64,000 nt of DNA from Escherichia coli (GCF_024502345.1 NZ_JALDNN010000001.1), one strand, 5' to 3'; counted from the stretch's first letter, positions 1 through 4,249 are shown. Program-made: numbers and translations. Notes: generated from the sequence alone by a model not told the origin.

Positions 1-785
1 TGCAGCATTGGTACAACCTGAGCGACGGTGCCATGGAAGATGCCCTGTACGAAATCGCCTCCATGCGCCTGTTTGCCCGATTATCCCTGGATAGCGCCCT
101 GCCGGATCGCACCACCATCATGAATTTCCGCCACCTGCTCGAGCAGCATCAACTGGCCCGTCAATTGTTCAAGACCATCAATCGCTGGCTGGCCGAAGCA
201 GGCGTCATGATGACCCAAGGCACTTTGGTGGATGCCACCATCATTGAGGCACCCAGCTCTACCAAGAACAAAGAGCAGCAACGCGATCCGGAGATGCATC
301 AGACCAAGAAAGGCAATCAGTGGCACTTTGGCATGAAGGCCCACATTGGTGTCGATGCCAAGAGTGGCCTGACCCACAGCCTAGTCACCACCGCGGCCAA
401 CGAGCATGACCTCAATCAGCTGGGTAATCTGCTTCATGGAGAGGAGCAATTTGTCTCAGCCGATGCCGGCTACCAAGGAGCGCCACAGCGCGAGGAGCTG
501 GCCGAGGTGGATGTGGACTGGCTGATCGCCGAGCGTCCCGGCAAGGTAAAAACCTTGAAGCAGCATCCGCGCAAGAACAAAACGGCCATCAACATCGAAT
601 ACATGAAAGCCAGCATCCGTGCCAAGGTGGAGCACCCGTTTCGCATCATCAAGCGGCAGTTCGGCTTCGTGAAAGCCAGATACAAGGGGCTGCTGAAAAA
701 CGATAACCAACTGGCGATGTTATTCACCCTGGCCAACCTGTTTCGGGTGGACCAAATGATACGTCAGTGGGAGAGATCTCAGTAA
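1..785 (+). CDS. insH: IS5-family DDE transposase (InsH-like), N-terminus outside the window
   Basis: Frame is open from position 3 ([24 protein letters not shown]...); translation matches the IS5 transposase along its length. Confidence 0.9.
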
Positions 786-932
786 AAACCGGAAATAACG
801 CCAGAAATGGTGGAAAAAATAGCCTAAATAGGCTGATTCGATGTGTTTGCGGGAAAAAAATCGGCCCAGATCCGCGAAATTTTAATCAACGAGTCAGCTT
901 GGGAAGAAATGACCTGCTTATTCGCACCTTCC
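1..932 (+). mobile_element. IS5-family insertion sequence, 5'-truncated by the window edge; right terminal inverted repeat CTTATTCGCACCTTCC at 917-932 followed by CTAA target motif at 933-936
   Basis: Transposase ORF reads as IS5 InsH; terminal 16-bp sequence matches the IS5 inverted repeat from memory; internal sequence near the right end differs from the K-12 IS5 copy, so this is an IS5 variant. Confidence 0.85.
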
Positions 933-1038
933 CTAATCAGATAGAACAGTCCCGGATAATATTCGGGACTCATACACTGACATACTGAGTTCTGAATTTA
1001 GTAGCAAGATTACTTATGATTATTTAAGGATAGTAACC

Positions 1039-2004
1039 ATGCCTTTAGATTTAAGTAACACCTTAGTTATTGGCATCAGCGCAACCGCGCTTTTCGACAT
1101 GAGTGAATCCGATCGCATGTTTCGCGAAACCTATGCGACCGATCCTGATAGCGCCATTGAAAAGTATCGCGCCTACATGCTGGAGCACGAAAACCAGCCT
1201 TTACAACCAGGAACAGGCTATCCCTTGGTCAAAGCGCTTTTGGGACTCAACCAGCACCGTCAACCCGATGATAAATCACCGCTGGTTGAAGTTGTCGTGA
1301 TGTCGCGTAACAGCCCTGATACCGGTATCCGTGTCCTAAATACCATTCGCCATGACAAACTCGATATTACACGTTCAGCCTTTACCGCAGGTGAAACTGT
1401 TGCCGATTACTTAGATGCTTTTGATGTGGATCTGTTTTTAACGACCAACGTTGAAGATGCGCAAAAGGTGATTGATTCCCGGTTCTGCGCCGCAGCAATC
1501 CTGAAAGATCCGCCTTCTGACGCATCTGATATCCCCGAAGGGCAAGTGCGCATTGCTTTTGACGGTGATGCAGTGCTTTTCTCTGATGAAAGTGAGTTAG
1601 TTTATAAAACTCAAGGGATGGCCGCTTTTCACGCCCAGGAGGATGCGCAGCAAGATATCCCGATGGCTGAGGGACCTTATGCCACTTTGCTAAAAAAAAT
1701 AGCCAAGCTTCAGGAGCGATTGCCAACACGAGTCGAGTATTCTCCCGTCCGTATTGCGCTGGTGACAGCCCGAAATAGCCCTTCGGAAATGCGCGTCATT
1801 AAAACGCTGAGAAGCTGGGGGGTATATGTCGATGAAGCTTTTTTTCTTGGCGGTGTAGAGAAAACAAAAGTTCTGAAGGCGTTTAAACCGCACATTTTCT
1901 TCGACGACCAGGATGTGCATTTGGTTGCTGCCGCAAAGGTTGTTCCTTCCGGTAAAGTACCTTATGCCAGTAATTCAGAGCTTTTTGAAAACGTAGCATC
2001 ATGA
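1039..2004 (+). CDS. Predicted HAD-like 5'-nucleotidase of the cytosolic cN-IA type (321 aa); islet cargo gene
   Basis: Translation contains an FDGDAVLF (DxDx[TV]) motif and overall resemblance to the bacterial 5'-nucleotidase family; family assignment is from memory, not a search. Confidence 0.6.
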   Translation: MPLDLSNTLVIGISATALFDMSESDRMFRETYATDPDSAIEKYRAYMLEHENQPLQPGTGYPLVKALLGLNQHRQPDDKSPLVEVVVMSRNSPDTGIRVLNTIRHDKLDITRSAFTAGETVADYLDAFDVDLFLTTNVEDAQKVIDSRFCAAAILKDPPSDASDIPEGQVRIAFDGDAVLFSDESELVYKTQGMAAFHAQEDAQQDIPMAEGPYATLLKKIAKLQERLPTRVEYSPVRIALVTARNSPSEMRVIKTLRSWGVYVDEAFFLGGVEKTKVLKAFKPHIFFDDQDVHLVAAAKVVPSGKVPYASNSELFENVAS

Positions 2005-2010
2005 AACTTT

Positions 2011-2049
2011 AAACAAATAGCCATCTTTACATCTAGATGGCTATTTGTT
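2011..2049. terminator. Hairpin with about 14-bp perfect stem between convergent genes; probable bidirectional terminator
   Basis: ACAAATAGCCATCT ... AGATGGCTATTTGT inverted repeat directly after the stop codons of the 321-aa gene and the integrase. Confidence 0.5.
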
Positions 2050-2052
2050 AAT

Positions 2053-3267
2053 TTATGCCGTCTTCCTAAATGCACCCTCTACCACACCCCCGCCTTTCCC
2101 CAGCTCACCAATGTAATCCGCATACCACTGCATCATTTGCCTACGCCCATCAAGATACTGCGCATGGTTATACGTGCCGCGAATCGCATTCTTATCGACA
2201 TGGGCAAGCTGCGTTTCAATCCACGCTGAGTTAAAGCCCTGCTCGTGCAGAATGGTACTCATCGTGTGGCGGAAACCATGTCCCGTCAGCCTGCCTTTAT
2301 ACCCTAATAACTCAATGACCTGATTGATGCTTTCCTTGCTGATCGGCTTGCGAGGATCATTCCTGCCGATAAAGACCAGCGCGTGATGTTTTGATATCGG
2401 CTCAAGTTGCTTGAACAGCGCAATAACCTGTTCTGAGAGCGGCACAATATGGGGCCGTTTCATCTTCATCACTTCTGCCGGGATCTCCCATAGTTTTGTC
2501 TCAAAATCGATATCCTCCCAGCGTGCGAAACGTAGTTCTTGCGTGCGTACACCGGTTAACATAATGATCTGAGTGGCGGTCTTCGTGATAACACTGCCGG
2601 TATAACCCGCCAGATCATTGAGAAAGTGAGGTAGTTCATTGGCAGTAAGGAAAGGAAAATGTACCTTTTTTGGCGTAGCTAAGGCGCTGGCAAGATCGGG
2701 GGCGGGGTTGTAATTCGCTCTGCCGGTAATAATTGCAAAACGGAATACTTCCCCGCAGCGCTGGCGAACTTTACGCATTTTCTCCAGCGCTCCGCGTTTC
2801 TCCATCTTACGTAGCGCTTCCAGTAGTTCCATTGGCTTAATATCAGCAATAGGGCGCTTACCGATGTAGGGGAAGATGTCCTTCTCAAAGGTGTCGATGA
2901 TTTCATCGCGGTAGCGCAATGACCAGCGATCGGCTTTAGTCTGATGCCACTCGCGAGCCACGGCTTCAAACGTGTTCTCTGCATTCAGTTTCTGCGCAAG
3001 TTTCTCGGATTTTTTAGTTTCTCCGGGGTCGCCACCTGCCGCCAGAATCTTCTTCGCCGCATCACGTTTTTCACGGGCGTCTGCCAGAGAAACATCGGGG
3101 TAGACGCCAAAAGCGAGACGCTTCTCTTTACCTGCAACGCGATATTTCATGCGCCAGTAGCGTGAGCCATTGGTTGCTACTTCAACGTACAACCCTCCTG
3201 CATCACCTAAGCGATACGTCTTTTCTCTGGGTTTTAACGCACGCACTTTTGCATCAGTTAATGGCAT
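2053..3267 (-). CDS. Tyrosine recombinase, P4-type integrase (404 aa), apparently intact
   Basis: N-terminal arm-binding region (MPLTDAKVRALKP...GLYVEV...YWRMKYR) and C-terminal catalytic residues (GHGFRHT ... RGTYNHAQY); lies next to the tRNA-Sec 3' end. Confidence 0.9.
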   Translation of the reverse strand: MPLTDAKVRALKPREKTYRLGDAGGLYVEVATNGSRYWRMKYRVAGKEKRLAFGVYPDVSLADAREKRDAAKKILAAGGDPGETKKSEKLAQKLNAENTFEAVAREWHQTKADRWSLRYRDEIIDTFEKDIFPYIGKRPIADIKPMELLEALRKMEKRGALEKMRKVRQRCGEVFRFAIITGRANYNPAPDLASALATPKKVHFPFLTANELPHFLNDLAGYTGSVITKTATQIIMLTGVRTQELRFARWEDIDFETKLWEIPAEVMKMKRPHIVPLSEQVIALFKQLEPISKHHALVFIGRNDPRKPISKESINQVIELLGYKGRLTGHGFRHTMSTILHEQGFNSAWIETQLAHVDKNAIRGTYNHAQYLDGRRQMMQWYADYIGELGKGGGVVEGAFRKTA

Positions 3268-3706
3268 CGTTGTTTCCTCCTGAAAGCAAGAATGCTTTGA
3301 CAGCCTGGGTTTGTTCGGGTGTCAGGGATAGGGTTTGTTTGGTTGTTTTGATGGTTAAGCCGTAATGCTCTGAGAGGGAAAGTTGAAAGGATTGTTTGGC
3401 CCGTTCCTGGCGACGTTGCTCTCTTTCGTGAGCCTTATCGATTGCAGGATCGTAGCCCTCTTTGATTTTTACTCTGGCTTTATCCCTTAGCACAATGGCT
3501 TCTTTAATCGTGACGTCCGGCCATGCTCCAAATGTGAGGCTTTTCTCCTTCCCCTCTATCCGGTACTTCATCCGCCAGCACTTTGACCCCGTTGGATTCA
3601 CCAACAAAAAGAGCCCTCTGCCGATAGAAAATTTGTAAGGTTTACTACGGGCATCAAGTGACTTTATTATTTGATTATTAATGATTTTTTGTTCTTTTGG
3701 TGGCAT
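3254..3706 (-). pseudogene. Integrase N-terminal fragment (150 codons, arm-binding domain only), stops 14 bp inside the start of the intact integrase
   Basis: Translation MPPKEQKIINNQIIKSLDARSKPYKFSIGRGLFLLVNPTGSKCWRMKYR... resembles P4-type integrase N-termini but lacks the catalytic domain. Confidence 0.6.
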
Positions 3707-3862
3707 GTCATTTTACCTCCAATGGTTGGTATGCCCAATTGTGCCCCCAAAGGCGTATTGATACCAGTAGACTCCGGTTGACCTCAGAATACAAGGAAGG
3801 CTTGATATATAAGGGATGAGAAGAGATTTTGTTGACGTCAGAAGAGTTCAGGAGAGGCTAAT

Positions 3863-3957
3863 TGGCGGAAGATCACAGGAGTCGAACCTGCCCGGGACCG
3901 CTGGCGGCCCCAACTGGATTTGAAGTCCAGCCGCCTCACCGGAGACGACGATCTTCC
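3863..3957 (-). tRNA. selC: tRNA-Sec (selenocysteine tRNA), 95 nt
   Basis: Reverse complement reads GGAAGATCGTCGTCTCCGGTGAGGCGGCTGGACTTCAAATCCAGTTGGGGCCGCCAGCGGTCCCGGGCAGGTTCGACTCCTGTGATCTTCCGCCA, the E. coli selC sequence. Confidence 0.95.
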
Positions 3958-4249
3958 GCGCCTCGATTGCTACATGGAGGCGGGGCGCATTATAGCTACT
4001 TCCTTGAGTTTCTACATCCCCCAGATCAGTTTTTTCCGCCTAATACACGCAGCGTATTATCACGAAAGCATTATAGTTCATATAAAACCCATATTTTACA
4101 ATGATATATGAGCGGAATTAACGCTACCACGATCACATAAAACAAGAATCATAAATTAATAACCAGATATCGGAATATTCGCTCTCACAGGGATGGTTTA
4201 CAAAATGCGTTATCGGTCTCAGCACCCCTATAGCATCAAGGAAAAGCAG

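Follow-up and report, generated by a model that had tools for sequence, protein, structure and literature searches.

A probable defence island at selC of Escherichia coli, with a small Arm gene beside its integrase and a 5'-nucleotidase at its cargo end

Genomic islands of Escherichia coli that are linked to tRNA genes, among them LEE, PAI I-536 and SHI-2 at selC, share a recognizable build: they occupy the 3' end of the tRNA gene, are flanked by a repeat, keep a P4-type integrase next to the tRNA and are sporadically distributed. Hochhauser et al. (2023; PMC10121019) described 18 defence hotspots of E. coli that lie within tRNA loci. Here we analysed a stretch of 64,000 nucleotides of E. coli DNA (GCF_024502345.1 NZ_JALDNN010000001.1; hereafter the window, with positions counted from its first letter), whose positions 1–3960 are the integrase-proximal (attL) end of a ~27-kb island in the 3' end of selC, the tRNA-Sec gene. 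Every testable feature of a tRNA-integrated P4-type island is found at this locus, namely location at the tRNA 3' end, a far repeat, sporadic distribution and an intact integrase, and the clustering of defence systems at a tRNA is that of the described hotspots. The island differs from LEE, PAI I-536 and SHI-2 in its cargo, which consists of defence and toxin–antitoxin genes rather than virulence genes, and in an extra small gene for a stand-alone Arm-type DNA-binding protein. We consider it probable that the locus is an integrative defence island with a two-gene recombination module and a 5'-nucleotidase at the end of its cargo.

The selC island: extent, cargo and recent sharing

The integrase module (2053–3706) lies immediately 3' of selC and on the same strand (minus), and yicJ and yicI follow on the other side of selC in the order known from K-12; an Rfam scan of the window region returned tRNA-Sec as its sole match. 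The inventory of the original prediction, which comprised tRNA-Sec, an integrase remnant (the Arm open reading frame, ORF), a P4-type integrase, a 321-aa gene and an IS5-family element running off the window edge, was recovered place for place (Table 1). The window ends inside an insertion sequence (IS), and the interior and extent of the island were read from its relatives in CFSAN051542 and G3/10. In CFSAN051542 the element spans from selC (record position 72054) to about record position 45011. The expectation of an acquired, selC-anchored element that continues upstream of the window was thus borne out, although at ~27 kb it is no 'islet', as it had been called. Nor does it stand in place of the K-12 setC side, as had been proposed, for setC is intact beyond the island in the nearest complete genomes (43170–44354 in CFSAN051542, ~27.7 kb further on).

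The far att repeat, a duplicated selC 3' end whose existence had been proposed, is present in CFSAN051542 as a 37-nt imperfect copy, TCAGGAGAGGCATTTTGGCGGAGATCACAGGAGTCG, at 44976–45011, between rhuM and a rhuM fragment that adjoins setC; the attL copy in full reads TCAGGAGAGGCTAATTGGCGGAAGATCACAGGAGTCG. A 13-nt selC-like word inside hsdM (record position 61335) was considered as a further att copy and judged to be a chance match. The rhuM fragment (L003 44751–44912, CFSAN051542) lies between the attR repeat and setC, with an intact rhuM just inside the island, and was probably left behind by an older island at selC.

Distribution was determined among 5,426 E. coli genomes, to which all such counts below refer. 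The island itself is present in two of them. At least 80% of window 1–4200 is covered by a single genome (CFSAN051542) and 78% by one more, which is far from the presence in most genomes that had been named beforehand as the sign of ancestral backbone. G3/10 matches window 933–4200, without this copy of the IS, and a few additional E. coli genomes carry a variant of the sequence at 85–87% identity. Across the island end, two mismatches separate the window from CFSAN051542 (window 1–3957) and one separates it from G3/10 (933–3957), a divergence of 0.03–0.05%. The backbone just past selC diverges by 1.5% from CFSAN051542 and by 0.8% from G3/10, with the first backbone mismatch at 4384. Divergence between strains is thus about 25 times lower in the island end than in the adjoining chromosome, which marks the island as recently shared, by horizontal transfer, between different E. 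coli backbones. A limited search of the literature did not turn up an earlier account of this island.

Read from selC, the gene order in CFSAN051542 is int, the 5'-nucleotidase gene, ISKpn26, hsdR, a DUF4268 gene, hsdS and hsdM; then three TerY-P genes, YfjJ, a helix-turn-helix (HTH) gene and several hypothetical genes; and finally DUF932, radC, a DUF987 gene split by an IS3 element, YeeU/CbtA, DUF4942 and rhuM. YeeU/CbtA is a toxin–antitoxin pair carried in the cargo of the closest relatives. The DUF4268 gene, between hsdS and hsdR of the type I restriction–modification (R-M) operon, matches PADLOC PDC-S11 (E 2e-173; L001 15396–16583). PADLOC places TerY-P (three genes), type I R-M, PDC-S11 and PDC-S08, the last being the nucleotidase, within 13 kb in both CFSAN051542 and G3/10; PDC-S08 alone falls inside the window. 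Because TerY-P, type I R-M and PDC-S11 are present, as several anti-phage systems in one cluster, we regard the element as a defence island, and the anti-phage cargo that had been anticipated is indeed found in the relatives' island.

Table 1. Features of the island end and of selC in the window
Feature	Position	Strand	Basis or detail
Right part of ISKpn26-like IS5-family element	1–932	plus	Transposase frame 1–785, start off window
CTAA, IS5 target tetranucleotide, right junction	933–936		Direct reading
321-aa HAD-superfamily 5'-nucleotidase-family gene	1039–2004	plus	Pfam PF06189, residues 1–312, E 3.9e-120
Intact 404-aa P4-type tyrosine integrase	2053–3267	minus	NF007246, E 4.8e-91
150-aa stand-alone Arm-DNA-binding protein gene	3254–3706	minus	NF007246, positions 5–119
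attL arm region, small Arm gene to selC	3707–3862		Candidate arm-type motif GTGCCCCCAAA at 3741–3751
attL copy of terminal direct repeat	3848–3884		TCAGGAGAGGC, 4 nt, then TGGCGGAAGATCACAGGAGTCG (selC 3' end)
selC, tRNA-Sec gene, anticodon UCA, integration target	3863–3957	minus	ARAGORN; Rfam RF01852, 83.8 bits

The small Arm gene and its integrase

Arm domains are known as parts of integrases, as in the integrase of the Yersinia high-pathogenicity island (arm domain, PDB 3JTZ) and the N-terminal arm of lambda Int. At selC, in contrast, an Arm domain is encoded as a separate polypeptide with a C-terminal extension, upstream of a complete integrase that has an arm domain of its own. In this integrase, Pfam domains Arm-DNA-bind_3, Phage_int_M and Phage_integrase extend over residues 3–371, and the protein aligns over its full length and without gaps to other E. 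coli selC integrases (83–93% identity). The small ORF is likewise intact and has its own GGAGG ribosome-binding site; the Arm domain is the only domain that can be recognized in its product and shares 39–42% identity with its counterpart in the adjacent integrase. The Shine–Dalgarno sequence (AGGAGG) and ATG of int fall inside the last codons of the small gene, an overlap of 14 nt that suggests translational coupling of the two genes.

Homologues of the same length (150 aa) occur in Citrobacter braakii (91% identity), Serratia fonticola (81%) and Hafnia alvei (78%), with further ones in Proteus mirabilis (149 aa, 60%) and in metagenomes (148–159 aa at 34–43%). The C-terminal third of the protein is conserved and does not resemble an integrase, and its motif LSLTPxxT...FL is kept at 35% identity. 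By codon analysis, the ratio of non-synonymous to synonymous substitution rates (dN/dS) of the gene is 0.10 against Serratia and 0.13 against Proteus, and for residues 96–150 it falls to 0.05 and 0.11, respectively; the Serratia copies show no non-synonymous changes among themselves at dS 0.13–0.15. The 120 best profile hits of the family, each in a separate 90%-identity cluster, are all 139–188 aa long, most of them ~146–159 aa, and include proteins of Burkholderia, Paraburkholderia, Gallionella and Sedimenticola. By these comparisons the small Arm ORF is under purifying selection and is a conserved gene paired with the integrase. The earlier reading of the locus as tandem integrase genes, one of them a remnant, therefore holds in that an Arm-only ORF does lie beside an intact integrase, but not in taking that ORF for a pseudogene.

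The order tRNA, small Arm ORF, full integrase recurs in all seven lineages with readable context: E. coli, Serratia, Proteus, two metagenomic lineages, Paraburkholderia and Gallionella (in one of the metagenomic lineages, L105/L106, the contigs stop 28 codons into the overlapping downstream ORF). The small ORF begins ~110–210 bp downstream of the tRNA, the integrase is 392–406 aa long, and in the lineages compared its start lies 4–14 nt before, or 3 nt after, the stop of the small ORF. The tRNA varies, being tRNA-Sec in E. coli, Serratia and Proteus, tRNA-Val in one metagenomic lineage, tRNA-Ala in Paraburkholderia and tRNA-Met in Gallionella, so that the pairing spans Gamma- and Betaproteobacteria.

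Between the small Arm gene and selC lies a candidate arm-type motif, which on the gene strand reads TTTGGGGGCAC. In E. coli, Serratia and Proteus the attL spacers all contain TGGGGGCA unchanged, even though the Proteus flanks have diverged. Across 92 kb of CFSAN051542 there are exactly two occurrences of TGCCCCCAA, one ~115 bp inward of attL and the other ~75 bp inward of attR, and an extra GTGCCCCC stands 13 bp from the attR copy. The motif can be written (G)TGCCCCC(AAA) and is confined to the two island ends (window 3741–3751 and CFSAN051542 record positions 45069–45091). The placement of TGCCCCCAA is typical of arm-type sites, and we regard it as a candidate for one.

The isolated arm domain of lambda Int acts as a modulator. 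On account of this behaviour, of the fold of the small Arm protein and of the apparent coupling of its gene to int, we regard it as quite possible, though tentative, that the protein occupies arm sites and modulates integrase action. The module comprises the small Arm gene first and the full P4-type integrase second, overlapping it and probably translationally coupled to it; on this view the small protein would bind the arm-type sites TGCCCCCAA inside both island ends, and it would tune or direct the integrase, as a competitor or as an architectural partner. By analogy, it recalls the recombination directionality factors (RDFs) lambda Xis, P4 Vis and AlpA, which are also small DNA-binding proteins encoded with an integrase, and like them could plausibly act on att arms. 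Those factors, however, have winged-helix or HTH folds, whereas the small protein has an Arm-type β-sheet, followed by a conserved β-β-β-α extension of ~55 aa for which no structural match was obtained. The island carries a 68-aa HTH gene separate from the small Arm gene, and this one is a putative AlpA-type RDF. A wider proposal, which we think rather unlikely, is that the 150-aa protein represents an undescribed class of accessory factor, a free subunit produced alongside P4-type integrases that target tRNA genes throughout Proteobacteria, which sets the direction or frequency of excision and integration at arm-type sites; on the same view it might block rival elements from the same tRNA site. 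A limited literature search found no functional study of a small Arm-type protein.

The 5'-nucleotidase at the cargo end

The 321-aa protein belongs to Pfam family PF06189, whose name comes from vertebrate cytosolic 5'-nucleotidase I (cN-I), which we take to be its founding members. Compared with these, the bacterial protein has an extra, N-terminal Rossmann-like domain; a sequence search found no solved structure in the family. Among 79 homologues, down to 35% identity, residues D175, D177, T243, K275 and D289 are invariant and V179 and D290 are kept in at least 90%. These residues make up the complete set of HAD motifs I–IV (DxDxV, T, K, DD), and the gene is thus predicted to encode a HAD phosphatase of the cN-I 5'-nucleotidase family with an intact catalytic site. 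The protein matches PADLOC PDC-S08 with E 1.8e-134 over profile positions 15–317 of 323.

In the island, the nucleotidase gene is the last gene of the R-M and defence cargo block and is convergent with int. Its terminal place behind R-M genes and a variable slot is conserved in many Gammaproteobacteria. It is present in 100 of the E. coli genomes. In the islands of this species that were inspected, it is found at selC, at leuX and at a tRNA-Phe gene, with no more than two genes between it and an integrase or integrase fragment, and it points the same way as a type I R-M system and a variable slot. What occupies the slot differs: SIR2/PDC-S25, an AAA ATPase with HNH, a CN-hydrolase or unknown genes. 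In LY180 and N10 the slot lies between hsdS and the nucleotidase, and its contents in other E. coli include genes for 582 aa and 88 aa (L006 6852–8859), for a CN-hydrolase of 454 aa and a protein of 115 aa (L007 7236–8940) and for 325 aa (L008 7967–8944); the slot genes of these three loci gave no PADLOC match. In strain XJ5.2 a 66%-identical copy of the nucleotidase has an integrase and a type I R-M system close by but lies on the opposite strand.

Relatives of the nucleotidase are encoded by at least 550 candidate stretches, counting one genome per species, and the best 80 of these are 66–98% identical; the relatives span Gammaproteobacteria, Campylobacterota, Desulfobacterota, Spirochaetota and Alicyclobacillus. 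Homologues of Shewanella, Desulfomicrobium and Azotobacter (71–83% identity) hold the same position after a type I or type III-like R-M system and are followed by GmrSD, TerY-P or dynamin-like GTPases. A 45%-identical homologue lies in a pPIWI/helicase island. The upstream context was counted in the 58 species-level loci whose upstream flank extends for 6 kb or more, scoring R-M genes within 10 kb; 23 of them have R-M upstream (21 type I, 2 type III-like), with the methylase on the same strand in all but one. The reference panel of defence proteins used for this count (tblastn) is narrow, and loci without R-M were rechecked by grouping the genes around them and scanning the groups that recurred, which turned out to be housekeeping genes. 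A neighbour-joining tree places the R-M-linked copies in a clade of Enterobacterales, Vibrionales and Alteromonadales and in a group of Stutzerimonas stutzeri and Pseudomonas alcaligenes. Phage records carry the gene in 3 of 50,697 cases, all short and unannotated.

In some marine loci the block is preceded by a CARF-sigma54 activator of the RtcR type (PADLOC RtcR_PspF2, E 9e-183), placed before the series hsdR, hsdM, hsdS and, further on, the 5'-nucleotidase gene (L033 2118–3608 and eight other marine gammaproteobacterial loci). This activator hints at signal-controlled expression of the R-M and nucleotidase block.

With regard to function, the nucleotidase resembles dCTP deaminase and dGTPase in being a single-gene enzyme of nucleotide metabolism that is found in defence islands and has housekeeping relatives. 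A defence role is plausible but unproven. More specifically, we see as a distinct possibility, if one held with some reserve, that it is a phosphatase of (deoxy)nucleoside monophosphates ((d)NMPs) and drains or redirects nucleotide pools, either as a defence in itself or as an adjunct of R-M. In the first case, the enzyme would dephosphorylate (d)NMPs and so deplete the nucleotide pool; in the second, it would assist restriction by denying phages the dNMPs freed from degraded DNA.

On its upstream side the nucleotidase gene starts 106 bp from the end of the IS. The transposase of this IS scores well above the cut-off of NCBIfam profile NF033581 (E 1.2e-86, 290.6 bits against 140) and is named 'IS5-like element ISKpn26 family transposase' in the annotation of CFSAN051542. 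The 16-bp terminal inverted repeat cttattcgcaccttcc is found at 917–932, with the left inverted repeat present in CFSAN051542, and the element has the CTAA target of IS5/ISKpn26. It departs from a simple IS5 insertion in its flanks, which are CTTG on the left (CFSAN051542) and CTAA on the right, with no target-site duplication. G3/10 (L002 18262–20004), EC291 and Buttiauxella have a 580-aa gene between hsdR and the nucleotidase (found also at L009 7156–8898 and in L023); the CTAA includes, in G3/10, the TAA stop of this gene, and the IS sits exactly there. The gene is missing from the lineage of the window. Given the CTTG/CTAA flanks and the loss of the 580-aa gene, we interpret the IS copy as the mark of a deletion or IS-mediated exchange rather than of a simple insertion; the lack of a matching duplication is consistent with either event. 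The 580-aa protein gave weak P-loop NTPase hits and no PADLOC match, and is possibly an unknown defence gene. No plus-strand sigma-70-like promoter was detected in 933–1038, and consensus scans of 880–4250 for promoters and terminators returned sites no more numerous than in shuffled sequence.

Elsewhere in the window, an 857-bp segment with a hypothetical ORF occupies the gltS–recG intergenic region (12720–13576). CFSAN051542 and G3/10 lack it and 1,910 of the E. coli genomes have it; it is a common presence/absence polymorphism.

Competing explanations and what the island implies

Several observations tell against our interpretation and are best weighed together with the explanations that compete with it. 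As regards the island, its extent and cargo here are read from two near-identical relatives whose interiors are mosaic (the hsdR 3' end is 84% identical), and the two copies of the att repeat differ by a 1-nt deletion and a 4-nt mismatch. The region could be ancestral E. coli backbone, in keeping with a GC content of 44–52% that is mildly below that of the flanking genes. Yet its rarity among the genomes, the att repeat, the integrase abutting the tRNA and the contrast in divergence between island end and neighbouring backbone leave this explanation a negligible probability. As regards the recombination module, the 150-aa ORF could be a decaying 5' fragment of the int gene of an older selC island, left by tandem integration and then joined to the present int by deletion. 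Truncated int genes are often seen at selC in E. coli, the ORF has an Arm domain alone, 41% identical to that of the integrase next to it, and the rhuM fragment outside attR attests that earlier islands left debris at the locus. In E. coli SC407, moreover, the homologous stretch is a decayed copy of the small Arm gene (L010 6004–6432; 70% nucleotide identity) with many stops and indels, beside an intact integrase that is 93% identical. The small Arm gene can thus be lost while int is kept, and is dispensable at least for maintenance. Against a remnant stand the low dN/dS of the gene, lowest in its non-Arm C-terminal third, the length kept in most of the 120 best hits, and a conserved C-terminal motif that bears no relation to the core-binding domains of integrases. 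The ORF carries a ribosome-binding site of its own, no internal att copy is found between it and int, and the same bicistronic layout recurs at four different tRNA genes in distant taxa. An intact and constrained ORF of this kind does not have the character of an integrase pseudogene, and its origin with int by tandem integration and deletion was dropped on the homologue, synteny and selection data; we consider that explanation very unlikely, and prefer a conserved gene paired with the integrase.

The nucleotidase, for its part, may be a metabolic passenger, a nucleotide-salvage phosphatase that is linked to R-M islands and has been flagged through its neighbours. In Campylobacterota, Marinobacter and some Pseudomonas, orthologues of 66–77% identity have housekeeping genes as neighbours. 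In the neighbour-joining tree, Sulfurimonas, Sulfuricurvum, Marinobacter and one Pseudomonas group cluster by taxon and show no linkage to R-M, which is the congruence with taxonomy that a passenger would have. At loci without R-M the genes that recur nearby encode a response regulator, a hybrid histidine kinase, aminopeptidase N (pepN), YaiI, DibA and GABA transaminase. At 66–98% identity across several phyla, the protein is more conserved than is usual for the product of a defence gene, its gene has no conserved partner, and in E. coli this gene keeps its place next to the integrase, as a backbone gene would, while the content of the slot beside it changes. In the literature we found no experimental test of PDC-S08, no published phenotype, and no bacterial PF06189 member with a tested substrate or phage phenotype; the 2023 hotspot paper in Nucleic Acids Research makes no mention of PDC-S08 or of the nucleotidase. 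The one paper that names PDC-S08 reports it evenly split between resistant and susceptible strains of P. aeruginosa (PMC10855318). A passenger would not be expected, however, to keep its position and strand at the end of an R-M block in 23 of the 58 species-level loci, in taxa as far apart as Enterobacterales, Desulfomicrobium and Alicyclobacillus, or to recur at 45% identity in a pPIWI/helicase island. Conserved housekeeping homologues are also said to exist for dCTP deaminase and dGTPase, the nucleotide-depleting defence enzymes reportedly described by Tal et al. in 2022. We hold the passenger explanation to be a serious competitor, possible if somewhat doubtful.

As a whole, the island is an ordinary tRNA-anchored defence island with two uncharacterised parts, and as one more of its kind it has catalogue value and brings no surprise. 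Its parts have wider bearing. The PDC-S08 nucleotidase is, by its catalytic residues, an intact, compact, single-gene candidate for nucleotide-pool defence, and its mixed genomic context illustrates that calls made by guilt-by-association need experimental checking. The slot between hsdS and the nucleotidase, with its several unknown genes, might be mined for new defence systems. Arm-only ORFs beside integrases are usually annotated as pseudogene debris; the conservation of the one described here, and the large family to which it belongs, affect how mobility modules should be annotated, and the small Arm gene points to a candidate regulator of excision and integration. If the accessory-factor proposal were true, a large share of tRNA islands would use a two-protein recombinase module, one part of which has been annotated as a 'truncated integrase'.

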